From contig BCIN01000008.1 of NCBI GenBank assembly GCA_039545335.1, positions 1,065,528 through 1,121,345 of the forward strand: a DNA stretch of 55,818 nucleotides, written 5' to 3'. The stretch comes from Kondoa subrosea (lineage: Eukaryota). The position numbers and the translations under genes are program-made. Positions within the stretch are counted from its first letter, which is position 1. Each line of letters opens with the position of its first letter. This document shows, piece after piece, positions 1 to 20,400 of this stretch. The notes under the pieces were generated by a model. The model was given only the letters and a program-made list of their open reading frames with translations. It ran no database searches and was not told the origin of the DNA.

Positions 1-44
1 TTCCCTGTGACACCCATGCGAGACACTGCTCATTTTGCCTTCAG

Positions 45-662
45 ATGTCTCTCAAATCGCTACTTATCAAGTAAGACGATCGCTTGAAAGCGGTATACAG
101 GTCTTTGATTCAGCTTTGTGTGCTTCTCAGGTATCGAAAAGTCTCATCCTTAAACACGTTGCATCGAAAGATGGAGTTCCAGTCCATCTAGGAGCTAGCA
201 TTCTGTCTGGAACAGTTGCTACTACCGTGTGCGCACCAGCAGATGTGCTCAAGTCAAGAATCCAGTCGGCTTCTGGTAATCAGGTAAGTTTGTGCCTTCA
301 TACGCAGACTCAAGTTGACTTTCATCAAAGGGGATCATGGATGTGATACGAACATCTCTGAAAGCGGAGGGACCTGGTTTCCTCTTCCGAGGTTGGGTGC
401 CAGCTTGGCTGAGATTGGGGTAAGTTTTGTTTGACTAGCGCCCTCAATACGAAATCTGACATGATTTTATAGACCAAACACTGTCTTGATGTTCGTCTTC
501 ATGGAACAGCTTCAAAAGGGTGTAGAGTCAGTCTTCTCTATCTCTGGCCTGATACTGGTTATGACTAATACCTGTTCCAGTCTTTGGCGCAATCGACAAA
601 TGCAGACTGCTATTGTTCCTGCAAGGGTGGATTCTATTCAGGAGAAGAAGGTGATGGCATAA
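45..662 (+). CDS. Mitochondrial carrier family protein (dicarboxylate carrier DIC1-like), 3' part only; 5' end lies outside the window
   Basis: Spliced exons give ...VSQIATYQ-VSKSLILK...ATTVCAPADVLKSRIQS (Px[DE]xx[KR]xR carrier signature)...FLFRGWVPAWLRLGPNTVLMFVFMEQLQK...; stop TAA at 660-662. Confidence 0.88.
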
Positions 663-1002
663 TAGGGCATTGGATCTGTGGTTGTCATTTTATACACTTT
701 GTACTGCTGTACTTGGGCTTGTCGATAGTTGTGCATAACATGATTTCTATGCACATCGGCCAAAGATTTCACGTTTGTACTGAGCCTCGCCATGACAAGA
801 AACAAATAGCAGGAAGTCAGCTGATCGAAAGAAGTAGGAGGGAATCAATGAATTAGAGAAAAGGAGATAACTAGATTTGGTCAAGAATAGCGCATTGAAG
901 TGTGTCAACCAAGTCAAATAAAATTTCAACAAACTATCATTTCAAGCAAGCAAACATACTGATACAAACACCGCTCTCTTTCCCCTGAATCAGAAGAACA
1001 GC

Positions 1003-2452
1003 TTAATCCAAGAAACCATCAGGTGTAGCCTGTGCATTTGTATTCAGCAATCTTATCACTGGCCCAGGAAGAGAAAGCTTACAGGTCCCCAAACTGCTAG
1101 AGCTTCGTCGGAAGCTGGTAATCTGCCAGAAGGATTCTTGTGGTTGACTTGATCTGAATCGGCGCTGCATTGTTATGTTAGAACAAGCTACCGAGGAGCA
1201 AGAAGCAAAAGCTTACTAGTGTTCAATCATGAATTTGCCCTCAGGTTGGAACCTATCAATCAACTAAATCAGCGCTTTCTTGGAAATCCTTCACGAATAG
1301 TGATTTACCAGTAGTCGAACACTTGGGAACCGAGAATATCTGTAAACTTTGATATTAGAGTAAGCTCAAAGAAGGACAAGATATCGACATACGTCTGCCT
1401 ACACCCCAGCACGGAGTGTAACCCTTGCTTTCAAGCCATTGATGACCAATCTAAACTCGCAACTTTAGCTCCAATAATACTTCAATGGAGGAAAGAAGCT
1501 GACCATTTGAGTGTCATAGTCTTGAACTTCGAAAGAGCAATGATGAACACCAGTACGCTTGCTGTTCTCGGAAAAGAAGAAAGCGTGGTGATCGACGAAA
1601 GTTTCGCCTAGATCGAAATGAAGGAAAGCTGCTACATCTGTGTCATCTGGAGTGTGTAGAATACTAACCACCAAAAGGAGCAACATTAGGCCAGTTCGAC
1701 AAGATCAAAAGGCATAACATACTCTGAAGGAGTGAGGGTGAAGTGAGACATGTAGAAGTCAAGGGTTCTCTTGTAGTTTGATACTAGAAGACCGAAATGA
1801 CCAAGCTTGTGAACTACGGCAGGTTGGGCTTCGAATCTGTATAATCGCCTTCTCAACATAATAATATTGAACGAAGTCAGCACAACACACCTCAAGAACT
1901 CTCCCTTTCTTGGCTTCGCAAGAGGGAAGTTGTTGATGCGAGTAAGACCAGGGTCACGATCTTCTCTTTCTTCAATACCGTGAACGAGATGGAAAGGTAG
2001 ACCATCAGGATCAGTAGCAGAAACCATTTCACCTCCACCTGGACCATCAAGCTTGAATGGACCTTTAGCGTTTGGTAGAGTCTTTGCTGCCTTTTCCAAA
2101 TCTTCTCTTGAACCAGCTAAGAAGACACCACCTTGATATTCTGGTTCATCGGTCTTTGTTGCGACGTAAACGTATTGATCAACACCAGATCCAGCGAACC
2201 ATCGAGTTGTCCCATCGTCTTTGACGACTTCCATACCAAAGTCTTTCCTGTCATAGACATTAGCTACATTGGAATGATTGCCATCCGGAGTTTTACAGGA
2301 ATGTCGTAGTTAGTTCAAGGTCCTTGTGCCCATAACGCATATGCGAGCAGCGCAGCTGTAGACGACAAATAAGAAGTGAGATCAGCGAAAGCTTGAAGTC
2401 GCTCGAAGCGGGTACTGACAATGCGGATTCTGTCATCTTTCTGGATTGCCAT
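1003..2452 (-). CDS. VOC/glyoxalase-fold extradiol ring-cleavage dioxygenase (trihydroxytoluene oxygenase-like)
   Basis: ATG at 2452 (MAIQKDDRIRI); multi-exon; motifs DPDG.PFHLVHG, VHKLGHFG, VDHH..F, GVHHCSFEV, WGVGRHILGSQVFDYW, FMIEHYAD and terminal WGP; His/His/Glu metal triad appears intact; stop TAA at 1003-1005. Confidence 0.9.
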
Positions 2453-2756
2453 TGCTTCTAGCTTCTATGTGAATGAGCTGTAGTAAAGTGCTGGTGTTCA
2501 GTTTACAGGTCACTGAGAAAGCGGATCCCTTTACTCACAATTGGTAATGCGAGGGATTGTTCTTCAACAACGATGTATATGCCTGAGGCTTGATAGCAGA
2601 CAGTGATGAAGTGCAAGGGAGTAGTGGTGCTGCAGGACAAGAGTGTGGAGTCGAGGCTGCCATCCCTCGGTCGGCATTTTCGGTCCTTTTATTCTTCCGA
2701 GCTTTATCGCTGTGAATGTCAACCTTGGCCTCTTTCATCTCTCGCTACTGATAAAA

Positions 2757-4053
2757 ATGACTTGGTCACGCATTCTCCGTTTTGTTGCTGAAGAAGATGG
2801 CCAAACTTACTTGGGTCAACCGGTGGATGCCAAATTGGATGTAGGCAAAGCTTTCGCTGCGGGAGACAAAGTAAAGGTCAATGTCATCAAGAGCGATATC
2901 TTTGATGCAAAGGCAGAGGTCTCATCAGATGAAAAGACTGTCAAAGAGGTTAGCTGGATTCCCGACATTGCGGCTGAGCTTGGCTGACACAAATCTTTGG
3001 ATAGCTTCTATGTCCTCTTACTAGGCAGCAAGTGTCAGTTATACGCTGTCTAGGCCTTAATTACCAGAAACATCAAGTATGGGCTGCCTTTGGATGTGCT
3101 CGCGTGTACTGATACCTCTTCCTTGTTTAGGTAGAATCTGGTTATCCAAGACCAAATGAACCTCTCCTCTTCCTCAAACCTAGAACTTCACTCTGCGGCC
3201 CTGGTCACTTAGTCATGCCTAAAGCAGTAGAAGATCAGCTGGATTTCGAGACTGAGTACGTACTTTTAGAAATCCTTAGGGACTATGCTGATCGGTATAT
3301 ATAGGTTGGCAGTGATAATAGGCAAAGACGCTCGCGATGTGAAAGAAGCAGATGCATTCCAATATGTATTAGGGTGAGTCAATAACCTCTGATTACCTAA
3401 TGTAAAACTGGCTAACATATAAATTTTAGCTACGCAAGTGCAAATGACTTGAGTGCAAGAAAATTCCAGACAGCAGTGAGTTGAATTGGTGGATTCTTTA
3501 GCATCGCAGACTAACAGTCCTTTTCTGCCTAGAACTCTCAAATCTGCTTCGGCAAAGGCTTCGACAATGCTTGCCCAATAGGTAAGCTGCCTTCTATAAC
3601 GTTAGTCTAATCTTTAATCAAGACTATTCAACTTACAGGACCAGTCATTGTCTCTACTCGCGAGATCAAGGATCCTCAAGGTCTGGATTTCGAAGGTCGC
3701 ATGGATGGCAAACCGCAACAAGCGGATAGTACAGAGTAAGCTGTTCGAATAGTAACGCGTTTTGAGATGATTTCTGATCACACCACAATGAATAGCGATA
3801 TGATCTTCAAAGTAGCTGAAACTATCGCGCACTGCTCTCAAGGTACAACTCTCGAACAGGGATCTATCATCTTGATGGGAACACCTAAAGGTATGCTGTA
3901 CTTCCACTAGGTTTATTGCTTAGCTCATTGATCTGGATTGCAGGTGTCGGCTGGTTCCAAAAACCTTTGAACCTCATCAAGGAAGGCAGTAAATTCGAAG
4001 TAGAGTTCTCTCATGGGTTAGGCACACTTGTCAATACCTTCTCCTTTGCATAA
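2757..4053 (+). CDS. Fumarylacetoacetate hydrolase (FAH) family protein
   Basis: MTWSRILRFVAEEDGQTYLGQPVD N-terminus; spliced motifs CLGLNY, PLLFLKPRTS, LDFETELAVIIGK, NDLSARKFQ, GKGFDNACPIGP, MIFKVAETIAHCSQGTTLEQGSIILMGTPKGVG. Confidence 0.92.
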
Positions 4054-4270
4054 TTCATACTGTCGCGTTCTTGCTCGTGATATTACTTGGAGATGCAACG
4101 GACATTTTTTTAACATCCGACGAAACCGCTCGGAAGGTAAATATATTCTTGACTGCCTTGAAGGTGATCACCTATCAACCACTACATACAACTTTGGCTA
4201 GCTTGCTCTCCTTCACTTCCTTTGCGGTCATACTTGTTGGATTATTGAACACCATATCAAGCTCGCAAAC

Positions 4271-6186
4271 ATGTCTGGGCAATTCGACTGCGATGTGATT
4301 GTAGCAGGAGCTGGTTAGCTGGCTTTCTTTGTATACCTGCTTAAGATACAGTGCTTAATGCCTGTCGATCAGGTCCTGTTGGATTATTGACTTCGCTTCG
4401 TTTGGCGAACGAAGGTTAGCTGCACCGTTTACTTGGCCTTACAATGCTGATGAGATTCTTACAGGTCTATCTGTTACTCTGTATGTTTGCTTGACGTCGA
4501 AAAGCAGCTCAGAATCTCATGACTTCGAGAAAGCTTGGAAGCTCTACCAGAAATCGTCGATTCACCTAGAGCAGCTGTCTATCGTGGTCCAGCATTATTA
4601 GAATTGGTAGCAGCTGGAGTGATCAAAGATGTGAAAGAAAGAGGTATCAAGACTACCGATTTGTCTTGGAGAAGAGTCGGAGCTGTTAAAGATAAAGATG
4701 GGAAAGAAATCTTCCCTGCTCATTCTGTGTCAGTTTTCTAGGCTATGCACACAGACAAGTGGTTTGGTTCTGATGTAATGAATATAGCATTACAAAACTT
4801 GACAGCAAAGACTTGTGAGCTTTTTACTTGATTATCCTTCTAGAAGTACTGATCACACACACAGCTATCCTGAAGGCAATGAGAATGAATGCATTACTTT
4901 TGGTCAATATGCTCTGTCTGAAGTCCTGAGGGAACATCTAGCCAAATTACCAAACTTCAAGATGCATTTCTCTACACCTGTTACCGCTATTGAACAAGAT
5001 TCCGAGAGTATCACTGTTAGTTCAAATGACAAGAAGTTCAGAGCGCGATACATGGTTGCCTGTGATGGTGGACGAAGTGCATGTCGGAAGCTGCTTGGCA
5101 CAAAGTTTGAAGGTAAGATGCATGATTTTGCAGAAGACCAGCTCGCTGACTTGCTTGATAGGCTATACATTCCCCTACCCTGTGGTAGCAAACAAGTATG
5201 TCAAGACCTTCTGCGCGATGGTAGCTTCCTGAACCATTTCTTCTTGCGTCCAGTGTGTACTATCCTTTCATGGAGCATGGCTTTGGAAACTGTGAGTGTC
5301 ACGTCTGTGCGAAACAATGAATAATGTCTAATTGGTCACCTGCCAGGTCAATGTATGTTTAAAACTCAATCATTCATCACTGGCCTAATTGCTAATGATT
5401 GCTAAAGACTTCGTGGACGAAGATCACTGGGCGCTCATTGCTAGATTAGACGCTAAAGGCATGTGGCGAGTAAGCTGTAGGTGTCTTTCAGCTCGAGAAG
5501 TAAGACATTCCTGACCGAAAATATAGATGGGGAGAAAGAAGGCATGACTGAAGAGCAATTACACGACCCTAAGCGAGTGCACGAGAAGTTTGAAGCTCTC
5601 TTCCCTGGCCCAAGACCACTCAAGTACGACTGCATCTCTACCCGATCCTATCTGATGCATCAGAGATGTGCGGATAAGTTCAGGGTCGGCCGAGCATTGC
5701 TTGCTGGTGATGCGGCGAGATTGAACAACCCTTTCGGAGGTCTTGGATTGACTGGCGGTATTCTCGATGGCGGGGCTGCTGCTGAAGCGATCATTGCGGT
5801 TCTTCAAGATGGCGAACCCGAAAGCATTCTTGATCGGTACTCAGAGATCAGGAGAGCAATCTTCTTGAATTACAACAACAAGTGGTGCGTCGAAGCTTTA
5901 CACTTGTGGTTTCGGCTCTTACTTTCCGTCTTTTAGGTCGATTGATAATGTCAAAACTCTTATGGAAACAGATCCAGCTACAGCTCAAGATCACCCAATG
6001 TTCAAAGCGCTCAATAATCAAACGTTAGAAGAGGCGAAAGCAGCGTTCTATGATGATCATGTTATTCGACACTCAATGATTCGAGAATATACTCAACCTG
6101 ACAAGAAAGCAATGCGAGAAGAGAAGCAGAAGAAGGCTCTTGAAGGTTTCACTGTCGTCGAATATCCTCTCAAGGTGGTATCATAG
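4271..6186 (+). CDS. FAD-dependent aromatic hydroxylase (group A flavoprotein monooxygenase, MhpA/UbiH-like)
   Basis: DVIVAGAGPVGLLTSLRLA Rossmann motif, SPRA, ACDGGRS (DG motif), FRVGRALLAGDAARLNNPFGGLGLTGG (GD motif), LDRYSEIRR. Confidence 0.92.
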
Positions 6187-6443
6187 GGATCGGGCCTTAC
6201 ATTGTAATTTTCGTGTTGGATTGCATTTCTGTTTTCATACGGTCAACCATGCCTATCTTTGCTCTGGAGATTGAAGCAGAACGATCTTGACCAAACTATC
6301 ACGTCGCTGCACGCTCTCAGAATTGCTTGTGTCCGCTTAAGATCTTTTGCCATCCCGACATGTCCCTCCGCTATGCGAATTGAGCGACCTGTTGTCTTGC
6401 CCTGCTACTGTTTCATCGATAGTGTCATCTGCATATAGCAATC

Positions 6444-8272
6444 ATGCCCACAGAAACTGAAGCTTGGGTTGTCTTCGAAGCTGGAGGCCCGTTTCAACTC
6501 GAGCAAGTCATTCTGGATGATCCATTGGATGATGAAGTGCTTGTGGAGTGAGCGCTCTGCATATGGATACTTGCTTGAGCTGATTCCCTAGCAGAATGGT
6601 AGCATCTGGCGTCTGCGTGAGTTTCGGTTTAAGTTGTATCTACTCATTGCTGATGTTCAAACAGCACACGGATCTGTCGTGCGCTAAAGGTGTACTTCCT
6701 GGTTGTACATATCCTGTGATCTTGGGTTCGGATCCATTCTTTCCGCTTCATGAATTGGAGCTCAAAATGTCGACAACTCCAGGTCATGAAGGCAGTGGAA
6801 AGGTCATCAAATGCGGCTCAAAAGTTACTTCAGTGTGAGAGCTGCTCCTCTCTCTCTCTCTTGACCAAGTCTGAGCAGGGAGACAGATCTCCTGGCGATT
6901 CAGTTCTCTTGAGTTTCGCCTATTGCAACTCCTGCCCTAGCTGCAAAGCGAAAGATGTCGTATCATGCGATACCTGGGTTCAGGCGAGTCACAGCTTTTT
7001 TGGTTTTGGTCTTCCTCTTATATGCAGAACAGCTCAATTTCCTCAAGCATCGGTTAGACGGCTCAAGTGAGGTTGGGACACTGAAAGATGGCAAACGAGT
7101 TCAAGGAAGCTTCTTTGGTCAATCTAGGTCAGTCGTGGCTTGGGAAGACGTGACGAGTAGCTCATTAAAGTACGCAGTTTCGGGAAGCATGCGCTTGTTC
7201 GAGAAACTTCAGTAAGTCAGAAAGACTTTTATAGAAGCTGGCTGATGTTATTGAAGTGTGTCAAAGTGGCTCAAGGGACAGATCTAGAAATGTTAGCTTC
7301 TCTAGGATGTAGTTCGCAAACCGGAGCAGGTAGTCGTCATTGCTTGTAATGTTCGCAATAGCTGACACGCGATTTAGGGAGTGTTCTTAATATAGCTAAG
7401 CCTAAAGAGGAGCAAAGCATCTTGATCGGAGGTTTAGGAGGAGTAGGTAAGCGGTCCTCGACTCGATTGCATCTGATAAGAACTAATATTCATGGGTGCG
7501 ATAGGTTATGCTGCGCTCTTCGCAGCTGCTTCTTTGAACGTGAAGACTATCATTGCGGTGGATCTGATTGATAGCAGGCTTGTGAGCTGTACGCGCTGTG
7601 CACAGAATCATTATTGATTCTTGCTCTAGGCAAAGGCGAAAGAGCATGGTGCTACTCATCTTATCAATGCTAGAGAAGTTGATACAATTGAAGAAGTGAT
7701 GAAGATCACCAACGGAAGAGGCGTAGATTTCGCTATTGAAGCTACTGGAGTTGCAAGAGCCGCGAAAGCCGCATTCTTTAGTCTTGGCAAGAGAGGAAAG
7801 ATGGTCGGTCTTCCGTCCGAGTATGATCTTCCCAATTAATCGATGCTAAAAGGTACAAATTGGTGACAACGCTGCTGGTGAACTCAGTCTGTAAGTAATC
7901 AGTATCTCTGCTTTCTGATCTATTTGTGAATGGGAGATATTAGGCCTCTGGGCGGCTTCCTCTCACACTTGCGGACGATCGTTGGCTGTGCCGAAGGAGA
8001 TTCATATACTCCTGAATTCATACCGAAGCTAGTTCAAATGAACAAGGATGGCAAGGTAGTCTGCTCTTCGATCGCTTCGATATACGCTGATTCGTATGCA
8101 TAGTTCCCTATCGAAGCCATATCGAAGAAATACAGCTGGCGAGATCTTCCTGCAGGTATTACAGATCTTTCCTTTATGAGAGTCACTAGCTGACCTTCTA
8201 CTGACAGCCGAGAATGACATGCACCACGGAACCACAATCAAGCCAATCCTTATCTTCGCCAAAGAGCAGTAG
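6444..8272 (+). CDS. Zn-dependent medium-chain alcohol dehydrogenase (aryl/benzyl-alcohol dehydrogenase-like)
   Basis: GVCHTD, GHEGSG, structural Zn CNSCPSC...C, FFGQS, third ligand LGCSSQTGAG, GLGGVG followed by acidic VD (NAD preference), C-terminal GTTIKPILIF; many short introns. Confidence 0.92.
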
Positions 8273-8537
8273 AAGTCGCTGCGCAGTAGATCTCTATAAA
8301 TTGATACTAAACCGATTTTATGCTCAACCTGTAACCGGATCCTTGTTATTGCATTGTAGTGAATACAACAGTGACAAATTAGTACTGTGTATGCATCCTA
8401 GCCTGCCTCCCATGATAATGCTACTATCTCCAGATGACCGGGAGCCAGGCAATTCCCCGCACATACGAGCCTGGAACAATGCCGAACTCTCTTCAGCTGA
8501 TACAGGCAAGTAACAGACATGCTACTCTGATACAATT

Positions 8538-11525
8538 ATGTCTACGAGTGACGAGACGATCCCTGTGGTCGCCAATGTGGGCAAGAACGGCGAGAAGAAA
8601 CAAGCTGCTTGCCTCGCATGCAGACGAAGCAAGCTCCGCTGTGTCAAGGACACCGAAGACGCCCTTGTCTGCACAAGATGCAAGTCCTTGGCTTTGGAAT
8701 GTGTGATACCAGAATACAGAGGTGAGCCCATCCAGCATCCCTTTCCTGTCCGTGTCTGCTCTGCATGTCCTTGTTGTTCCGATTTTCCATTCGGATGTGC
8801 TTCGTACTGCTGCATCCAAGTCCGCTTGTCGTGATGGTTTGGAAGCATGTCATAGGCTCTCCCGCGAACACGCCCATCGGTCTTTAGGTCGGAAGTTGTT
8901 AAATGCCCTGCACTGGGCTATTTTTCATCATCATAAGCCTATCCTAGCTTATTGTTTGCATGCTAATGTACTTATCGATACAGTTGGTCGTCACAAGGGA
9001 ACGAAGAACAAATATACAGGTCTAGAGAAGTCAGTAAGACATCTAGAGCAAGCGTTGGAAAGCGGAACTTCTGGTTCAGTTTGCGATCCTTCACGACTCA
9101 AGAGCTTGCTACAAGAGGCCAGTCAAAAGCTCAACCTGAAAAGGAAGAGGGAAGATCCTGATCCTGGAGAACATCGGATATTAGAAATGCATCGTCAACC
9201 TTCTTTCTCTACCGATGGTCAGGCAAATCAAACTTACCAAGCAAATCTCTATGCTCAACAAATGAATATGCAAAGTACTTCTAGTAATTCAAATCTCTTT
9301 CAAAGCAATGCCCCTTTACCTTCCCCCGGATTCGCTTCTAATCATTTCTCGCCCACTGGCGATCTCTTTCAGCCAAATCAGTTCCACAGTCAAGCATTCG
9401 CTTCCCTCGTTGGCCAATCTTTCCCCATTCCCGCTCCTGCAGCTCCAAGCCGGTCCCCGATGAACACTTCGCAGAAGTCTTTGCCTGCTGGCAATTCCTC
9501 TTTCGATTTTGCCAACGCGCCCAATCCCCAGCATCGTAAACGCCTGTCTCTCGGCCAAAACGATCCGCTTCAGCCTCAAACGTCGTTCTCACCTTTCGGA
9601 TCTGCTCAAAGCCTCGATGCCTCTTCTCCAGCCGGATCGGCTACAACTATAGAGCAAGTACAGAACGCTGAAAATCCCTTGGGTCTGTTAGCATCGGTGT
9701 CCGAGCGTGTCGACATGCAGCCTTTTAGCTCTTCAGAATTCAGCTCATTACCGTCGGGCCTGCAGAAGGGTCGCTTCTTCGGCTCGAAAGCTTTCCGACT
9801 AGACAACACACCTGAATTGGATCCGATAGCTCTTGGCCTGGTCACATACGATGAAGCTAATCTCCTTGTCAACACTTTTCATTCCTCTTTGTCTCATACT
9901 CGATGGGGACTGACCAGCTCAATTCACACGACCGACTTCATTCGCTCAAGATCGAGTCTTCTTCTTACTGGCGTCATGCTAGGAGCCTCCAAATTTCTAG
10001 ACAACCATGAAGCGATTAACAAACGCTTACAAAGTCATTTGGCATTAGTCATTCGAGCGATATTTGAACAAGGCTACAAATCTATTGAGATCGTACTCGG
10101 TTTTCTTGTATGTATTCCGTGGCAGTCTCCGGGTGATAATGTGACAGGCAAGTCTGCCCTCATCGAGCAAAGCTTCCAGCTAACTCAGGAAATAGAGGAT
10201 CCTACCTCTCACTACATTGCTATGGCAATGAATATCGCCTTAGATTTATCGTTGGATCGCAAGATCTCGGATGAGAAAACACAGAAGCCAAGTTTTGGGC
10301 ATCTGTCTATTCTTTCGCCTCGCAATGCTCTGAATATTGTAGGTTGAATACTCTTGTATCATAGCAACCAGCTAAGTAATCATAGGATGGCTTTCCCGAA
10401 GTACATCCTGACTGTTGGTATGGAAGGCAATTACTCAGAGCAAGAGAAAGAGCTTTTCTATCATTATATGTGCTGGATCGTGGTTTTGCTTTAGCAAGAG
10501 GTCGACCATCGATGGTTCCAATCACTGCTGCTGTGGTTGCTTGCGATAAATGGCATGAAAGTCCTGATGCAGATCCTTCCGATGCTTCGATAGCTGGTGC
10601 GACAGTTCTCAGAAGAGATATGGATCAAGTCATAGAGAAGGTCAAGCTCCTCAGTGATCAGAGTACAGCGGAAAACGAATCAGGTCAACGTATACGCGAA
10701 GAAGTGGATGGCTATTTCAATTCTTGGCATCAGAATTGGGATCAAGCTATCATGAAAGGGCAGAGTGGCTTTCCTCCTTATCTCGACATTCTCATACAAC
10801 ATGTAGGTTAAGATAGCTGCTAGCTTTAAAGGAAATCCGCTAATTTCGCTACCAGACAAAGCTTTCCATATATGGCGCCGTGGTAAATTACATGAATGCC
10901 TCCCTCGAAGTCTCCAGCAACCTCGGCAATTGGGGCTTATCTGCAGCACTCAATGTCATGAGGGCTGCAGTACAAGGCGAAGACAAGCTGAAGTCAATGC
11001 CAAACAACTGGTAAGCTCGTTCTTGTGACCCGATCACAACCTCTTAATTTCAAGTAGTGCTGTCATGGTCTCTTATGCTGTCTGCTTTGTATTGGGGATC
11101 TATGCAAAACCGTCCTCTTTTGGCTCCACCATCGAACCGAAAGTCAGGATTTTGATTGGTCAAGTCATTGATATGCTTGTTCGGATCGGTTCTGTCACAC
11201 CGCATCGGCGTGGGATGTCAGCTGTATATGGCAAATCTCTGAAGGTATGTCATCACGACCTGTCTTGCTTCAGCGCTAACCCGAGACCGAGTAGGAAGCT
11301 GTTGCTCGAGTTCCTTTCATGGGAACACCTTTGCCAGAAAAGCAAACGGCTCTCGATACTCAAGAGAAAGAAATTAATACAGCAACTGGATTGGACATCC
11401 CTATGTTCTCTAATATGACAGATCTTCAATTGTCCACTGAAGTTGGTCTGTCGCATCCCTCCATCGATCTCGAAGCTTTCAACAGCGGCTCAGAATGGAT
11501 GTCTTGGATTACTAGCGCGCCCTAA
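8538..11525 (+). CDS. Zn(II)2Cys6 fungal transcription factor
   Basis: CLACRRSKLRC...CTRC....EC binuclear cluster; ENPLGLLA, LDPIALGLVT, RSRSSLLLT, KSIEIVLGFL and middle homology region YVLDRGFALARGRP. Confidence 0.92.
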
Positions 11526-11923
11526 ACAGGATTTCAACACTTCACTTGTATAGCATGGGCTTAGGGGAGCATTATGTAATGCGTGTGAGATATGTAGATG
11601 TAACATTCGAACTTTTCTTCTTCGACCATTATCGTTCTCGCTCTCCGCTGTGCCTCGGAACTGTAGCTGGAAACAGCATCTCGGATAAAGTTCGAGTTGC
11701 AGCCTTCGCGTCGAATATTGGCATGAATAAATTTGTTTCCTCAAGTGCACTCTATGAGATCCGTATCATGATAACACCTCTCTTCCCTCCCTTTTCTTTC
11801 CCCTTGATCGTGGTGTGCCAAAGTGTCGGCCATTGTTTGGCTGATTTGTTTCACCGGTGCTCAACCTTGGCTTGACCTATCAACTCTTCTGCATACCGCC
11901 AATACTACTAACTGCTCTTCAAT

Positions 11924-14165
11924 ATGAGCTCTCCTTTGTTCGCCGTGGATCTGACTCCCTCATTCTTCCTTGTCACAGTTCCCCTCGCTTCAATCGCTGT
12001 GCGTTTTCGCTTACCCCGCTTTGCATACTTAATTCTCATCGGCAATTCTGACAGGCCTATGCAGCCTATTCCATCTATGTAGCATTCTTTGGAGCTGTGT
12101 CTCATGTTCCTGGACCAATTCTCTGCAAGTTTACCGGTTTGGTGGATGCATATCAAACTTTGGTTGCGGGAAAGAGATCAATGTGGATTCACGAAGTTCA
12201 CGCGCGATACGGTCGGTCAAATGCTGCTGCCGTATTGCTTTGAAACTAATGCAGCGATTTGCTTTAGGTCCCGTGGTTCGCATTTCACCAAATCTCGTCT
12301 CTATCAACGATTCGACCGCTCTCAAATCTGTCTACGGAGGCAAATTCCCCAAGAGTGAACCTCGCTATTTCGGAAAACACATGGATGGAACAGAGGTGAG
12401 CAGCTTTCTTGTTCGGAGATTCGCACAAGCTAAGATCTGCCTTCAGCACATGTTGATTATGAACACGTACGCTCCTGTCGTTACGCAGTGTATTGTTGCA
12501 CAAAGACTTATGTATCACTGCAGACACGAAAAATTCCGAACTCGTCGCAATATCCTGCTTCCTCTGTTCCAGCGCAGCAACTTAGAATCGTTTGAGCCTG
12601 ATCTTCAGATGTACACTCAGATCTTCCTTGAACAAATCGAAAAAGAGCAGAAGGAAGAAGGGAGTGCTGATGTATTCCGCTGGTTCCGTTTGGTGGCTTT
12701 CGATATCATTTGCTCGCTCGCTTATGGTGTAGACATGGGCATGACTAAAGATGGCAAGAAGTATGTACTGCCTTCTTTATGTCGACCTTGGATCTGATTC
12801 ACTGGTCGCAGAAATCGATTGGTTGAGCTTATGGAACAAGTCTACGTCTATTGTTGGTCATCTTCTCGTTCTCGCACTATCCAGTGTTGACTGGTCTTGC
12901 CTTGTAGTCACCCTCAAAGACTTCGTTCGCGGAATCATCCCAATTGCTGAAAGTGGCATATCGTCGAAGCTCAAAGACATCAGCATGGCCGAAAAGAAAT
13001 TCGTTGCTTACGGAGAGAAGTTGTACTCAGAAGGCCTCGAGCAGGGTCGCTATGGTCATGAAGATGGAGGCAAGACCAACTTACTCGACTCTTTGCACAG
13101 AGCCTCTGAAGTTGATAAATCAATCACAAGAAAACACGTCGCAACTGAAGCTGGTGCCATTCTCATCGCTGGATCGTACGTTCACCTGGTCTTCCTTTTA
13201 TATGTGTCTTACCACGAGGATGTAGAGACACCACTTCCACCGCTATGACTTGTGAGCCCTTCGCGCCGGCTTGTATCTGGCGCATTTGAACTGACTTCGG
13301 TAATAGATGCATCTTGGGAACTCGCACGCAACCCGGCATTACAGCATAAGCTCAGAGAAGAACTCAAGACAGTGTCAGATGTCCTCAGCTTCCCAACAGG
13401 CAAAGCTCTCGAGTCCCTTCCCTTGTTCAATGGTTTCCTTAAGGAAGTACTTCGTTTATGGCCAACCCGTATGTTTTCTCCATCTTCTTCCGATTGTGCT
13501 GATTCCTCTTCACAGTCCCTGGTCCTCTGGAACGTCGAGTACCGGAAGGTGGTACAACACTCGCTGGTATCTCACTCCCTCACAACACGGAAGTCACAAT
13601 GTAGGATCCAATCAAGAGTTCGATTTTTAAAGCTAATGCATCGAATCAGGCAAGCTTACGACATTCATCGCGATGCAGCCACCTTCCCTGATCCGCTAGC
13701 ACTCAAGCCAGAGCGATGGTTGAAAGAAACATCTGCAATGAAAGAGAATTTCATTCCGTTAGTCAATTTTTGACGTCGAATATGATTGGAGTGACTGATT
13801 CGTCGTCTATTTAGCTTCTCATACGGACCTAGGAATTGCGTAAGTTTCCATTCACTCATCTACATGAGCTAGGCTCATTTCTCACTCCAGGTTGGCATGA
13901 ATCTCGCCTGGATCGAAATCAGAACTCTCATGGGCGCCATTATCCGCCGATATGACATAACCCTCGACCCAAAGACAACAGAGCAGTCAATGTATCGTGA
14001 GTTTCCATTGGTCTGCATACATTTACCTCTCTTACTAATGTTTGCAGCTGTCGAGCACTTCTTCGTTGTGCCAAAAGCTATGGGTGAGTGCGCCGATTCT
14101 AATGAGGTTCATACTCATCCCCACTTTCAGAATGCCGATTGCGCTTCAGGAAGCTTTCCGAGTGA
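11924..14165 (+). CDS. Cytochrome P450 monooxygenase (resembles benzoate 4-monooxygenase/CYP53-clan type)
   Basis: N-terminal membrane anchor, VPGP, HARYGPVVRISPN, I-helix AGSDTT, ExxR (EVLR), PERW, heme motif FSYGPRNC|VGMNLAW spanning an intron; stop TGA at 14163-14165. Confidence 0.92.
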
Positions 14166-14503
14166 AATTGTGGGATGTCTTGGGATCTATTTGATTATGA
14201 ACGATTGTAACATCATGTGCTTTCTCTCATTATTCATTGCAGAGTGCTCTATACCTGTACTCTTCTGCTGCGTTTGCTTTCTCCTTGGCTAGAACTGTTC
14301 TGCCAAAGGATCCTTCGGAATTCTCAAATCTTGCAGCGATCTTTGTACTTTGGATCCAGCTGTAGCGGTACTCTAAGGTCGTCATCCTCTAACTCTCAGA
14401 AAGGTACACCAGCATGTCGAATACGCAAAGGCTATCTTCCTCTCTAGCTATGGCTCAGCATCGCCTGATTGCCCAAAAGCAATGCGCCAATCGAAAGCCT
14501 CTG

Positions 14504-15852
14504 ATGCCTTCACTGCAGCATCTCCTCGTCTTCCTTTCTCTGTTAGCTGCACCGAAATGGCTCGAGAAGCGTCACAAGATCTCTGCTCTGTCGTATCTTC
14601 CTGTCCTTCTCTACGCGGCGCGATTCATCTATGCAGAAGCTTTACGGCATGTACGACTCCAACGACCTCCGCCTGGTCCTGCTTTGTCTTCGCTCACCGG
14701 TACAATTCAACGAATACGAATGCATTTGGGTTTAGATAGAAATGCTTTGGTCTATCTTCCACGAGATCGAAAGCCAAAACCTGCATTGCTGCTGGCCTTC
14801 CATGGAAGCTTGGAATCTGGAGAGTCAGTTGCTCATATCTCCTCGTAATAAAATCAACAGCTCATCTGCTGTAGTATCTTCCGATGTTCGACGACCGGAT
14901 GCAGATTGGACCAATTAGCGGATGAGCGAGGCTTCATTGTAGCTTATCCAGATGGTACGTTATGCATTGTTCAACTATTATCAGAGGACTGAAAAAAATA
15001 CTCAGGCGTAAAGGGCAATTGGAATGTAGATGGTCAATTACCTTGTTGTGCGAGACTCAATTTTGAATAGGACGGAAGACAAGGAGGAGCGTATCTTGCG
15101 AAAGAGCTCAACATCAACGACGTAAACTTCGTTAAACAGCTGATAACGAGAATCGATGAAGAGATAGGCATCGATAGTGAAAATGTCTTTGTGATTGGCT
15201 TCAGCAAGTTAGTAGCTAGAATGCAGGCTTTTTGAAGCTGTGCTCATGCGATTTTAGTGGTGGTCACTTCTGCCTTCGATTGCTGGCCGAACTCGGTTCA
15301 CCTACTATCAGAGCAGGAGCATCTATAGGCGCCAATCTTGTTCCGGAACAAAGCTCTGTTGTTGACTACTCGATCAGCGATACGAGCTCAGATCCTTTCC
15401 CTGTCGTTCTCCTGAACGGCACCAAGGATCCAATCATACCATATGCAGGAGGTGAAGGAGCCCTTTGGACTGCTCCATTTGGTCTTTATCAATACGGCAA
15501 GCGGGGTGTGCACCTTAGTTGCAAAGCTACTGCTCTGAGATTGGCGAAACGATGGGTTGATCAAGAGGAGATCAAGATCAATCCTTCTAGTACAGAAACA
15601 ATGGAAGTCATAGATCTGTCAAATGGAGATGGGAAACTTCTAGTACGCTCTATTGGGCTTAAAGGAGAAGGTCACGTATGTTTGTGCTTCGGCCGTTTTG
15701 CACACTGAAGCTGATCAAACTCGACACAGCGTGTATCTCACATAGCCCCTTACGACTCTTGTCCTTCGGCATATGGTCCGCGCAAGACAAATCTAGATGC
15801 ATGTGCGGAAATCCTCAAGTTCTTCGATGAGATTGCTCCAGGAAGTTTGTAA
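14504..15852 (+). CDS. Alpha/beta-hydrolase esterase of LpqC / PHB-depolymerase / feruloyl-esterase type
   Basis: PALLLAFHGS, DQLADERGFIVAYPDG, GNWNDGR, NDVNFV, nucleophile elbow IGFSNGG (spliced), LNGTKDPIIPYAGG, GEGH; start could alternatively be ATG 14450 or 14414. Confidence 0.85.
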
Positions 15853-17434: not shown

Positions 17435-20400
17435 ATGCAGCAAGAGAGACCTAGACCAGTCTCCATGCATGAAGGGCTGCTGAGAACGACTCAATCGCTC
17501 GGACCAGCACCTTCTCTGCCTGACTTCTCGCAAGATCAGGAGCTTGTCGTTCCAGCAACAAGTCAAGAGACTGTCTCTTACTATGCACTACCGCAGGAGA
17601 GGACAACTGCAGACTCTTTGAATTCTGTTAGTAATGTAATGTGCTTCGAACAGGTGCAAGCTTGTCGACTTACAAGTGTGCTCAGGAATCTCTTGACTCT
17701 CTCAAATCAGCTCAGCATACATTTCTATCAACTCTGAACGATATTGTTCTGAAAGTCGGGCCTGCTCAAACTTTCAGCGCTTCAACCTCCACTTCCATAC
17801 AAACTCAAGTTCTGTACAATCTCAGATCAGCTGTAGCAAACGTAGCACCTGATACAGAAATGGTCTCTCTGGGCATGAGCACAGAGCAATCTACTTCTTC
17901 AGTAGGCGAACTCAATGCGCTGACTGAACGCTTGGCCGGAAGCCTGCAACCTGCGGAAGCCCAACTCATCACAGCATTAGCGGCTCTAGTTAGTTGTCTA
18001 GAAAGACTTCTTGAGCTTTCAAGTTCCGCAAAAGATCTTTCGACTATAACAACGCTAAATTCGCTTGCAATAACACCAAATCCCTCATCTTCTCGGCTTG
18101 ACTCTTCCCAAACCTCATTTGAACAGAAGCAGAACATGTTCATGACCCTTCAGAAGCAAGCTCTGGCTCTTCAAGCTTCAAATCGGCACCGACAGTCCCT
18201 TTCACCTGACGGAATACTGGAAGTACGCGAAGCGGAAATATCTCTCCTCTGGTCTCGTATCGACGAATTGCTTGCAAGAATACATACTCTTTCTCAAAAT
18301 CATCAAACGCCAGAAGCTGGCTTTGAGTTTCGCTATACCAAGTCCAAGGATTACGAACCTTCTATTTCTGAATACTCACTTTCTGATCTCCCTACTTATT
18401 CTGATGAACAAATCAATGGTACAGAATCTCTACTACCGCCATCTTATCCGCAAGAGAAATCACCGAGTCGCAGCAGGAATGAAAAGCTACAATACGATCT
18501 AGAAAGTCTTTCTGATGCGATTGAAAGACTGCATGCTGTTTCGCCTCAGCTTCATAATCAACGAGTAGCACCAATCTCACCTCAAGACAGAGATAAGATT
18601 CGTCAAGGACAATTGACCAAACTTTCTACTGCTATTGAACGATTAAGTAAAGGAAGATTGGAAGATCAGAGAGCTGTTTTACCTATTGTTGAACCGTTGA
18701 GCGAAAGAGCAAAGGAGAAGATGAGGTTGCAAGAATTGGATTCGCTTTGGGATTCAATTGGGAAAGCGAATGGAAGAAGTTTGGTTGATCAGAGAGTTGC
18801 GCTTGGTGCAAAGAAAGATGGGAAATGGGCTGCGAAAGAGGTGTGTGATATGATCATACTATAATGATTAGAATTGACGATGGTTCTCTCGAACAGACAC
18901 ATATCGATTCCGAAGAAATGGCTCGAAGAGAACATATATTGACAGCTGTTGGTGCAGGTCGAATGAAGCAGCAAGATGCACGATTATCCTCTTCAAACAG
19001 TCGCGGTCGTATGCATCGATCCAATTCTATGCCTATGCCATCTGCAAATGAGAGCTGGACTCTCACTCAAGGTACACTTCTCATCTTCTTGCTTTAGAAA
19101 GGTATTGAGCGCTGATCAGCTTCTGTACAGAGCTTCAAATGGGTGGCGCAGACTCAGTCAAACCTTGGCACGATCATCGTGAACATCTGGACGGAGTCGG
19201 AGCCTGAATGTGAAGCAGATTGGAAAGTCGAAAGATTGGTCGAGAATCGGATATCACTCAACTGTGATGGAAGAATCATAGAGATAGCTCTTCCCGTTGC
19301 TATACAACCTCACGAAGAACCGACCATAATTGATCAGTCACAAGGTGTTCAGCTCAAACTCAAGACTATTGCTCGAGATTTATCATCTGAACCTGATCAA
19401 GAACCTTTAGATATACGCTTTCTTCAGTCCAATCCACCTTCTTCTTTCTTATGTGCAAATTGTGATCAGCCATTTGTGAAATATGTCGAATCATTACCTG
19501 TATATGCTGCACTGCCATCCGAACATTGGGCTGAGCTCATCGATGTCGCATGGATTTGTCATCAAGATCAAGAACTAAACCAGAACATCAAAGACCGGAA
19601 CGCTGGCTTTTGGCCTGACGAGCGAGATGTTTTTGTCGCATCGAATTATTTTCTCTTCCCAATGTCAGCAGTGCAGAATGTGTCCGCAAACAGAACTAAA
19701 GAAGTGAGTTTCGTAAAATCTGCGATTGCCTCAATGTCCTCGTCCCGGACTTCAAAGAAACTCTTCGGTCGACTCTTTTCAGTGCCATGAGAAGCTCTTG
19801 CTAGTTTTTCATTACCGCTGTAAACCTTTCACGACTCGATGCGGTGATACAAAAGTCCTATAACGATCCTCAAATGCTTCATTGTTTCTATTCGTAGTGC
19901 TTTGATGCAATCCTCTGACTGATCTCTTCGATTGGAGCTCTTGCTCGTAAGGGACTACATGAGAGGAAACATGCTGACGTAATGTTTCTTTTGTGAACAG
20001 CCAACGCTTTCTTGGAATGCCTACTGGTTTCCAGCTACATGTACCTCCTGTGAATCTGTCCTTGGTGAAATAGCTATCGATACTACTGGTAAAAATTCCG
20101 GCGGCAAAGCTATGCGTGCGCGAAAGTATGCTTTCAAAGCACTGCTTGCAAGCGGGAGGTGAGAAAAGTTGCTGTCCATGTTCAATGGCGCGAGACTTAA
20201 CTTTGTACAGCTCTTACGCTGTACCGCTCGATAACCATGTCGCGAGCGTAATGCTGGATCTTTCTCGGGCTCATGCCATTCATCGTTTCGTTATTGAAGA
20301 TGAGGATGCTTCACCAAGGATCTTCGTAGGTCCTGTGTTTGCAGGTAACTAGGACAGAGCTAACTGACTCGATGCAGGTCTGGCTGTTCAATCCTTCCGT

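Follow-up and report, generated by a model that had tools for sequence, protein, structure and literature searches.

Eight closely packed genes on contig BCIN01000008.1 of Kondoa subrosea (assembly GCA_039545335.1) may form a fungal cluster for the catabolism of phenolic compounds. They occupy positions 1–15852 of the stretch analyzed here, which comprises 55,818 nt (contig positions 1,065,528 to 1,121,345, forward strand) and is called the window in the following. According to this reading, to which we give about even chances, a core of three enzymes, a flavoprotein monooxygenase (FMO), a VOC dioxygenase and an FAH-family hydrolase, would open the ring of a triol by extradiol cleavage and hydrolyze the acylpyruvate formed. 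Fungal aromatic catabolism is usually described via a handful of central pathways with intradiol or cupin-type ring cleavage. A ring-opening route of the kind proposed here is familiar from bacteria and has not been worked out in fungi, where the cluster is undescribed. The closest named homologs of its proteins point to a probable source within the Pucciniomycotina.

The DNA of the window is intron-rich, with a GC content of about 0.46. Pfam was compared with 108 stop-to-stop open reading frames (ORFs) of at least 60 amino acids (aa) in the left part (1–17.7 kb) together with 20 chosen exon frames, and, in the right part (17.3–55.8 kb), with 99 ORFs that reach 85 aa or more. Intron positions were read from homology and GT-AG borders only, and starts and stops were located by reading frames.

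The VOC Dioxygenase

The putative ring-cleaving enzyme is encoded on the minus strand at 1003–2452. Its roughly eight exons, corresponding to about 320 aa, were mapped by tblastn using the homologs P0001, P0003 and P0006, and the Pfam Glyoxalase/VOC match is located at 1689–2309. With the largest exon as query, 24 relatives were recovered among 137 candidates, the best being P0001 and the best named one originating from a Cyphobasidiales metagenome-assembled genome. An intron of 54 nt at about 1837–1890 (minus strand) is in frame and free of stops, and a plain ORF reading through it gains 18 spurious residues, which drops the apparent identity to homologs from 89% to 73%. The rough spliced model of 334 aa, in which at least one intron is still retained, matches P0001 at 282 of 322 residues and contains the motifs HKLGHFG, VHHCSFEV, GRH, DYW and IEHY.

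His163, His233, His248, His265 and Tyr274 do not vary among the 22 family members aligned in A1 (P0001 numbering), and Glu285 hardly varies at all. We take the positions of His163, His233 and Glu285 to be those of the metal ligands in BphC, and regard His248, His265 (in GRH) and Tyr274 (in DYW) as putative counterparts of the second-sphere catalytic residues of BphC and XylE. The 2-His-1-carboxylate metal site sits in the C-terminal domain and is intact in the spliced model of the window protein. A comparison of the A1 profile with the PDB returned 12 sequences at E ≤ 0.01, including 3b59 (9.6e-17), BphC (1han, 2.1e-10), catechol 2,3-dioxygenases and homoprotocatechuate 2,3-dioxygenase, and the LGHF and HHxxxEV motifs of the family profile align with the same motifs of BphC. 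An AlphaFold model, made with A1 as input for the 89%-identical homolog P0001 and not for the window's own protein, reached a pLDDT of 86 and a pTM of 0.87. It consists of two tandem VOC domains, each composed of paired beta-alpha-beta-beta-beta modules, as in type I extradiol dioxygenases. In Foldseek the best match of this model was again 3b59 (E 2.3e-22), and TM-scores of 0.67–0.77 were obtained to 1mpy, 1f1r, 3lm4, 7q2a and 1han, which represent catechol 2,3-dioxygenase, homoprotocatechuate 2,3-dioxygenase, BphC and AphC.

An original prediction, made from the letters of the window, had named this gene as a VOC extradiol dioxygenase, and the motifs, the PDB profile matches and the fold of P0001 all agree with it. 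Judged from its sequence and from the model of its close homolog, the window protein is a genuine two-domain type I extradiol dioxygenase with an intact His/His/Glu site, and it is predicted to cleave beside a vicinal diol in an Fe(II)- or Mn(II)-dependent manner.

The family is large: of 8000 candidates that were scored, at least 2901 proteins reach E ≤ 1e-10. Practically all of the 120 members listed are fungal, and they include named species of Aspergillus, Penicillium, Fusarium and Trichoderma. Among the names given to them by their sources are "trihydroxytoluene oxygenase" (seven times), "metapyrocatechase 2" and "related to 2,3-dihydroxybiphenyl 1,2-dioxygenase"; we regard the trihydroxytoluene oxygenase names as name transfers that provide a lead only.

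The FAH-Family Hydrolase and the Flavoprotein Monooxygenase

The gene of the FAH-family (PF01557) hydrolase (2757–4053, plus strand) is arranged head to head with the VOC gene, and the divergent intergenic region between the two start codons spans 304 nt (2453–2756). FAA_hydrolase was detected on two exons, at 3740–3907 with an E-value of 2.7e-11 (44 bits, cut-off 23.9) and at 3131–3301 with an E-value of 0.0017, which is under the cut-off. In a rough spliced model the C-terminal half, including the motifs DFETE and NDLSAR, can be aligned with an FAH protein that is linked to VOC in bacteria, and the N-terminal half is poorly modeled. In NCBIfam, the window protein as well as VOC-linked relatives come closest to the models of 2,4-didehydro-3-deoxy-L-rhamnonate hydrolase and HpaG, with scores far below the cut-offs in all cases. 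Enzymes of the FAH family are reported to hydrolyze acylpyruvates, as in the case of the acylpyruvase FAHD1, with 2,4- or 3,5-diketo acids as substrates (PMC3196145). Based on family and sequence similarity, we propose that the window protein acts as an acylpyruvate or beta-diketone hydrolase.

The next gene downstream (4271–6186, plus strand) encodes a group A FMO with FAD_binding_3 matches at 4803–5321 and 5481–5933 and an N-terminal GAGPVG motif that spans the first intron. In the PDB the exon at 5481–5933 is closest to PnpA (6ain, 4.8e-27) and HspB (7da9, 2.6e-18), and all other matches have E-values of about 1e-8 or higher. Among the named full-length homologs, P0161 from Atractiella rhizophila is the closest; it is 63% identical to this exon and gives an even clearer picture, with PnpA at 5.4e-73 over residues 54–427 (nearly full length), HspB at 6.5e-53 and the next family at 2.8e-14. 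These similarities place the window FMO in the PnpA/HspB subfamily of para/ipso-hydroxylating enzymes. HspB swaps the para side chain of its substrate for a hydroxyl group. For PnpA, a conversion of para-substituted phenols to benzoquinones is described (PMC4879640). Some FMO homologs carry the source-given name terC, after the terrein cluster, and are about 43% identical to the exon.

Conservation of the Core in Other Genomes

To place the cluster in a wider context, metagenome contigs were scanned with A1, which resulted in 585 confirmed relatives and 80 loci that were kept. Sorting by eye, with ORF density, GC content and split matches as guides, assigned 32 of these loci to a fungal-like and 48 to a bacterial-like group, a procedure that misplaced at least L001 according to the tree described below. 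Where a locus had a flank of 2 kb or more, tblastn with FAH queries placed an FAH gene no farther than 5 kb from VOC in 10 of 19 fungal-like and in 7 of 37 bacterial-like cases. Over all fungal-like loci, FAH was found near VOC in 13 of 32. The head-to-head arrangement of the window is present in six of them (L002, L006, L011, L013, L028 and L044).

The neighborhoods of eight long fungal-like loci were scanned with Pfam. Of their 151 ORFs with a length of 150 aa or more, 119 were covered, and shorter exons lay outside the scan. FAA_hydrolase was recovered by Pfam in six of the eight and by tblastn in the other two, which is not an independent count, as the eight were picked because FAH had already been seen there. 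FAD_binding_3 is present in six, Fungal_trans in four and P450 in two of these loci. The conserved unit is composed of VOC and FAH, usually together with a group A FMO and often with a fungal regulator, and the periphery varies. Co-localization of homologs elsewhere had been set beforehand as a test of the original prediction, and VOC and FAH, often with FMO and a fungal transcription factor, were indeed found side by side in fungal-like contigs and in bacterial operons.

Some of the peripheries deserve mention in their own right. In L030 (1467–15268) a decarboxylase-type Amidohydro_2 gene, an MFS/TRI12 transporter, COesterase, DUF1993, VOC, FAH and FAD_binding_3 stand in a row. This would be a different upper pathway docked on the same VOC-FAH core, and one may speculate that it suits the de-esterification and decarboxylation of a resorcylic acid ester. 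L013 and L044 contain genes similar to flavin-containing or Baeyer-Villiger monooxygenases (BVMO), and L044 also contains an RPE65-type oxygenase. In L004 (2698–5709) a family III CoA-transferase and a 3-hydroxyacyl-CoA dehydrogenase adjoin FAH and VOC; these two enzymes could process a 3-oxoacid or 3-hydroxyacid product.

In bacteria the same core is embedded in operons. Five bacterial VOC neighborhoods, analyzed with NCBIfam (29 ORFs), begin with a regulator gene of the TetR or GntR type, behind which an operon encodes FAH (about 285 aa), VOC, a malonic semialdehyde reductase (PRK05365), an aromatic-acid/H+ MFS transporter and a CoA-acylating methylmalonate-semialdehyde dehydrogenase (TIGR01722), and the matches to PRK05365 and TIGR01722 are above the cut-off. 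Enzymes of 3-oxoacid metabolism are located near VOC in the bacterial relatives L038, L047, L055 and L041 and in the Streptomyces locus L085. A VOC relative is also found in 43 plasmid records; six of them were examined, and FAH is adjacent in five and an MhpA-like flavin monooxygenase is nearby in five. In the plasmid annotation the relatives are called "VOC family protein" only, a name that provides no link to dntD. On plasmids of Rhodococcus, Prescottella and Streptomyces a TetR gene is followed by VOC, FAH and the monooxygenase. The family list of L085 (plasmid NZ_CP108633.1, 1–12386) is nearly the same as that of the window: a P450 and a zinc-binding dehydrogenase, both located shortly upstream of the core, two TetR regulators, and then VOC, FAH, MhpA-like monooxygenase, acetoacetate-CoA ligase and malonic semialdehyde reductase. 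The similarity between the alcohol dehydrogenases (ADH) of the window and L085 is generic only, and the P450 of the window does not match that of L085 at E ≤ 1e-3.

A quick IQ-TREE analysis of 41 VOC sequences, unrooted and drawn with a midpoint root, combines all 16 fungal sequences and L001 in a single clade (SH-aLRT 99). This clade lies inside a larger one (SH-aLRT 97), which holds 11 of the 12 FAH-linked bacterial VOC sequences and 4 of the 13 unlinked ones. The nearest neighbor of the fungal clade is a gene on a Polymorphobacter plasmid (L083). As the fungal sequences are nested among FAH-linked bacterial ones, a transfer of function from the bacterial operons is somewhat justified. The topology would fit an ancient bacterial source of the module found in fungi.

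The Peripheral Genes and the Limits of the Cluster

The six genes from FAH to the last gene of the cluster are arranged head to tail on the same strand. Besides the 304 nt between VOC and FAH, the intergenic gaps are 217 nt (FAH-FMO), 257 nt (FMO-ADH), 265 nt (ADH-transcription factor), 398 nt (transcription factor-P450) and 248 nt (P450-hydrolase). The eight adjacent genes with gaps of about 200–400 nt that had been read from the sequence were therefore confirmed by measured values of 217–398 nt. Pfam recovered seven of the eight expected families. As to the individual labels, "esterase" for the eighth gene is plausible in view of its relatives, and where an aryl-alcohol dehydrogenase had been named the scans show a Zn-dependent medium-chain ADH only.

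At the left end, the 3' part of a mitochondrial carrier gene (1–662, plus strand) covers the last carrier repeat and the C-terminus, with a Mito_carr match at 11–343 (E 2.3e-6) and further C-terminal exons that were read from the sequence. About 340 nt separate its end (at or before 662) from the 3' end of the VOC gene. As the carrier gene crosses the start of the window, the left boundary of the cluster lies outside, and the membership of the carrier in the cluster is uncertain.

The ADH gene (6444–8272, plus strand) could be read to both termini. ADH_zinc_N (7630–7836) matches with an E-value of 1.8e-12 and ADH_N (6584–6835) with 23.0 bits, just below the cut-off of 23.5, and a PDB search with one exon gave no match. 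On these domain matches the protein is a Zn-dependent medium-chain ADH. It is followed by the gene of a large Zn2Cys6 transcription factor (8538–11525, plus strand). Zn_clus was detected at 8514–8831 (E 1.4e-6), the adjoining open exon encodes 546 aa with long low-complexity stretches rich in Ser, Pro and Gln, and the Fungal_trans middle domain was absent from the exons scanned with Pfam. This factor is likely the regulator of the pathway, and the genes may be co-regulated. The P450 gene (11924–14165, plus strand) has matches at 12033–12794 and 13249–13770 and the heme motif FSYGPRNCV at 13816–13842; its 3' exons and stop were read from the sequence.

The eighth gene (14414–15852, plus strand) is divergent and unusually isolated among known sequences. 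Its own exons have no match in Pfam or NCBIfam, and a PDB search with a short exon gave nothing useful. A HMMER pass over 1.84 billion representatives revealed 30 relatives at E ≤ 1e-3, only three of them at E ≤ 1e-10. Alpha/beta-hydrolase families (Abhydrolase_2, Esterase_PHB, DLH, Hydrolase_4) were found in 16 of the 18 relatives tested, and a weak atlas lead (score 0.88) points to a cluster in which 25% of the proteins carry Esterase_PHB. By eye, GFS/NGG across an intron, followed by TKD and GEGH, provide a candidate Ser-Asp-His triad, and the hydrophobic start of the protein could be a signal anchor. The gene probably encodes a lineage-restricted alpha/beta-hydrolase.

To the right of the cluster (17.3–55.8 kb), Pfam identified unrelated genes of the families HECT_2, threonine synthase, GST, RFX, PHAF1, PRMT and HSF, and among the 99 ORFs no further catabolic or core biosynthetic domain was found. 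These housekeeping families bear out the statement that the right flank is unrelated. Its gene density equals that of the cluster. Three open frames of this region, at 17635–18861 (409 aa), 24260–26134 (625 aa) and 29109–30497 (463 aa), have no Pfam match.

Proposed Pathway and Alternative Explanations

From the enzyme families and their bacterial counterparts we infer the following substrate class and products. The PnpA/HspB-type FMO would hydroxylate a phenol para to an existing hydroxyl group, possibly with expulsion of a substituent, and thereby produce a ring of the 1,2,4-trihydroxybenzene type, for example hydroxyquinol or a trihydroxytoluene. A suitable FMO substrate would be a resorcinol-type or ortho-hydroxylated phenol. 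The VOC enzyme would then open the triol beside its vicinal diol to a 2,4-dihydroxy-6-oxo-dienoate, which is equivalent to an acylpyruvate (2,4,6-trioxo acid), and the FAH enzyme would hydrolyze this 2,4-diketo acid to pyruvate and a 3-oxoacid, either malonate semialdehyde or acetoacetate. In chemical terms, hydroxyquinol would be converted via 2,4,6-trioxohexanoate to pyruvate and malonate semialdehyde, and a trihydroxytoluene via the methyl homolog to pyruvate and acetoacetate or methylmalonate semialdehyde. A single dioxygenase with a single FAH enzyme can lead into central metabolism only where the ring is opened directly to an acylpyruvate, and this would be the case in the extradiol cleavage of a 1,2,4-trihydroxybenzene. 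The additional enzymes of the bacterial operons act on precisely these predicted co-products of pyruvate. P450, Zn-ADH and alpha/beta-hydrolase are, to judge by their adjacency, likely lineage-specific funneling steps, and the neighboring carrier might link the pathway to the mitochondrial use of its products. Of the scheme in the original prediction, the VOC-FAH-monooxygenase(-regulator) core is supported by conservation, whereas ester release, side-chain oxidation by P450 and then ADH, and mitochondrial import are suggested by adjacency only.

A classical meta-cleavage of catechol or alkylcatechol seems unlikely to us. In such a pathway the FMO would produce a catechol, the VOC enzyme would cleave it to 2-hydroxymuconate semialdehyde and the FAH enzyme would act as a decarboxylase or hydratase similar to XylI or XylJ. 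The fold and the profile of the VOC enzyme do match catechol 2,3-dioxygenases, the alkylcatechol enzyme AphC and BphC, and the name "metapyrocatechase 2" occurs in the family. The rest of the lower pathway is a different matter, as Pfam detected no Aldedh, tautomerase, hydratase, aldolase or acetaldehyde dehydrogenase domain in the 55.8 kb. The sole alpha/beta-hydrolase (14414–15852) is divergent and, judged from the Abhydrolase_2, Esterase_PHB and DLH families of its relatives and not by alignment with BphD or XylF, not assignable to the meta-cleavage-product hydrolases. In addition, the nearest NCBIfam models of the FAH protein and its VOC-linked relatives are of the 2,4-diketo-acid hydrolase and HpaG types, the FMO is of the para-hydroxylating PnpA/HspB type and not an ortho-hydroxylating phenol hydroxylase, and the bacterial relatives adjoin 3-oxoacid enzymes instead of an xyl or dmp lower pathway. 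The idea of an extradiol catabolic logic is thereby retained with regard to bacterial-type extradiol cleavage, but with triol cleavage and acylpyruvate hydrolysis in place of the classical catechol route.

To a similar, low degree we consider a hydroquinone route, in which the PnpA-like FMO would produce a (substituted) hydroquinone, the VOC enzyme would cleave it directly and the FAH enzyme would hydrolyze the keto form of the hydroxymuconic semialdehyde; the phenol could be supplied by P450 and ADH, which fit the side-chain oxidation of an alkylphenol. The products of PnpA and HspB are of the para-diol type, and bacterial extradiol enzymes that cleave hydroquinone are described (PMC3222310). 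Against this route, the metal triad is located in the C-terminal domain as in catechol-type enzymes, and no hydroquinone dioxygenase occurs among the 12 PDB matches at E ≤ 0.01 or among the Foldseek matches listed up to rank 50. Moreover, the window contains neither a benzoquinone reductase nor a maleylacetate reductase according to Pfam, and the 3-oxoacid enzymes of the bacterial operons fit the product of triol cleavage better.

Several results weigh against the triol pathway and the eight-gene cluster as proposed. A PnpA-type enzyme yields a para-diol or quinone, so that a vicinal diol needs a suitably placed prior hydroxyl group, which leaves room for the hydroquinone route. In the 55.8-kb window Pfam detected neither a dehydrogenase or reductase for malonate or methylmalonate semialdehyde nor an enzyme that activates acetoacetate, and the ring-cleaving fold was predicted on the homolog P0001. 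With regard to conservation, 9 of the 19 fungal-like loci with a flank of 2 kb or more lack FAH in tblastn, and both the error in the sorting by eye and the choice of the eight loci by their FAH genes have to be kept in mind. Among the ORFs of at least 150 aa, homologs of ADH and carrier were found in none of the eight loci, and P450 (two of eight) and an esterase of another family (one of eight) are rare. The monooxygenases next to VOC are of mixed type, as the one of L030 has no PnpA match and the one of L012 has a phenol-hydroxylase C-terminal domain. Finally, the 7-mer CTCGGAA is present on either strand in four of six cluster promoters (2695, 4129, 11654 and 14156) and seven of its ten copies in the window lie in the first 14.2 kb, but this enrichment over the 6.8 copies expected is not significant, since 15 of 100 shuffles reach ten copies and some 7-mer would occur in four of six promoters about 0.2 times by chance.

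Some of these points would also suit the assumption that the VOC-FAH(-FMO) core alone is functional, and that carrier, ADH, P450, hydrolase and perhaps the transcription factor are unrelated neighbors in a gene-dense region. Conservation elsewhere is limited to VOC, FAH, FMO and a transcription factor, genes are packed in the right flank as densely as in the cluster, and the shared promoter 7-mer lacks significance. We nevertheless regard this assumption as very unlikely. Seven consecutive genes belong to families known from phenolic metabolism, and six of these share a strand and follow each other head to tail with gaps of 217–398 nt. The Streptomyces locus L085 also places a P450 and a Zn-ADH beside VOC, FAH and FMO, and different funneling genes at the same place in other fungal loci suggest a variable periphery. 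Equally improbable are tailoring genes for a secondary metabolite, in which FMO and dioxygenase would reshape a polyketide-derived phenol made by a core synthase to the left of the window or elsewhere: the terC names of FMO homologs (about 43% identity to the exon), the presence of P450, ADH, esterase-like hydrolase and Zn2Cys6 factor as typical tailoring genes and the left edge beyond the window would fit, but Pfam found no polyketide synthase, nonribosomal peptide synthetase or terpene synthase domain in the 207 ORFs of the 55.8 kb, the bacterial operons with transporters and 3-oxoacid enzymes are a catabolic setting for VOC and FAH, and the spread of the family over at least 2901 proteins (E ≤ 1e-10) fits primary catabolism more readily than the production of one natural product.

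Comparison with Known Systems

The triol pathway proposed here resembles, in its reaction logic, two bacterial routes. For the orcinol/resorcinol pathway of Pseudomonas putida, Chapman and Ribbons reportedly described in 1976 an orcinol hydroxylase, a 2,3,5-trihydroxytoluene 1,2-oxygenase and hydrolases for trioxoheptanoate and acetylpyruvate. This pathway shares the hydroxylation to a triol, the extradiol cleavage to a 2,4,6-trioxo acid and the hydrolysis of a beta-diketone, and the acetoacetate-CoA ligase and malonic semialdehyde reductase of L085 fit the methyl and non-methyl products to be expected. In contrast to the window cluster, it is known biochemically and from a bacterium. No paper on genes of the orcinol pathway or on a fungal version of it turned up in our literature search, judged by titles and the beginnings of abstracts.

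The second route is the lower 2,4-dinitrotoluene pathway of Burkholderia, in which DntB (monooxygenase), DntD (trihydroxytoluene oxygenase), DntG (isomerase/hydrolase) and DntE (methylmalonate-semialdehyde dehydrogenase) are reported to convert trihydroxytoluene to pyruvate and propionyl-CoA via methylmalonate semialdehyde (PMC10602510). A flavin monooxygenase provides a 1,2,4-trihydroxy ring for an extradiol dioxygenase, and hydrolysis leads to pyruvate and a 3-oxoacid semialdehyde, a likeness by reaction logic and not by alignment with DntD or DntG. We assume that DntG, too, is an FAH-family protein. The bacterial relatives of the window VOC are likewise found in operons with FAH, VOC and a methylmalonate-semialdehyde dehydrogenase. 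The window cluster differs in being eukaryotic and intron-rich, with its own Zn2Cys6 regulator, other peripheral genes and no semialdehyde dehydrogenase, and its substrate is presumably a natural compound rather than a nitroaromatic one. The para-nitrophenol hydroquinone pathway (PnpA, PnpB, PnpCD, PnpE and PnpF) shares with the window the subfamily of the FMO. In contrast to it, the window lacks a benzoquinone reductase, a two-subunit hydroquinone dioxygenase, a semialdehyde dehydrogenase and a maleylacetate reductase, and its ring-cleaving enzyme and hydrolase belong to other families.

In fungi, the Aspergillus gallate cluster via 1,2,3,5-tetrahydroxybenzene has been presented as a new central pathway beside five textbook ones (Martins et al., 2023; PMC10832562). 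It is also a small conserved catabolic cluster, in which an FAH-like gene accompanies a monooxygenase and a ring-cleaving enzyme. Its ring cleavage is attributed to a DUF3500 protein, together with a short domainless protein that is needed, whereas the window encodes a type I VOC enzyme, and we rejected an identity of the two clusters for this reason (PMC10832562). The A. niger route from vanillate to methoxyhydroquinone (VhyA, MhdA and OmeA; PMC8336404) is similar with regard to a flavin monooxygenase, a hydroquinone-type intermediate, a non-intradiol dioxygenase and an esterase gene beside the dioxygenase. MhdA, however, is a homolog of homogentisate dioxygenase, not a VOC protein, and no FAH-family enzyme is involved, and these genes were rejected as an identity as well because of the homogentisate-dioxygenase type of MhdA (PMC8336404). 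The phenol-degradation genes of Scedosporium were discarded as a match because they contain no VOC gene.

With regard to extradiol enzymes in general, a cross-kingdom study of 2025 states that the only characterized fungal extradiol enzymes for lignin-related compounds are homogentisate-type and that VOC-type enzymes "warrant further investigation" (PMC12420386). A review on A. niger from 2025 calls extradiol dioxygenases less common in fungi and gives none of the VOC type, and in a white-rot review "extradiol" appears in a reference title only. In the literature searched, to which subscription journals and the supplements of PMC12420386 (VOC tree, Supplementary Fig. 34) do not belong, there is no characterized fungal VOC-type extradiol pathway, which agrees with the assumption that this type of cluster is undescribed in fungi.

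Implications for Fungal Aromatic Catabolism

On a broader view, VOC and FAH together with a flavin monooxygenase and a fungal regulator might represent a widespread central pathway of fungi that has gone unrecognized. We put this forward tentatively and with slightly less than even confidence. Such a pathway would meta-cleave hydroxyquinol or trihydroxytoluene to pyruvate and malonate semialdehyde or acetoacetate, in parallel to the ortho pathway of hydroxyquinol, would share its ancestry with the bacterial FAH-VOC-FMO operons and would serve as a docking point for variable funneling genes. In the window these would be P450, ADH and alpha/beta-hydrolase, and elsewhere decarboxylase and carboxylesterase, BVMO-like enzymes or an RPE65-type oxygenase. 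Possible feedstocks are phenols of the resorcinol or orcinol type, for example from depsides.

The gap with regard to VOC-type enzymes in fungi is thereby turned into a testable proposal that names three enzymes and makes predictions for the substrate class as well as for the products, and the occurrence of family members in Aspergillus, Penicillium, Fusarium and Trichoderma brings it within reach of genetically tractable fungi. If the proposal is true, fungi would possess a new ring-cleavage route that leads to pyruvate and a C3 or C4 oxoacid instead of beta-ketoadipate, which would bear on the turnover of lignin and phenolic compounds as well as on the engineering of aromatic funneling.

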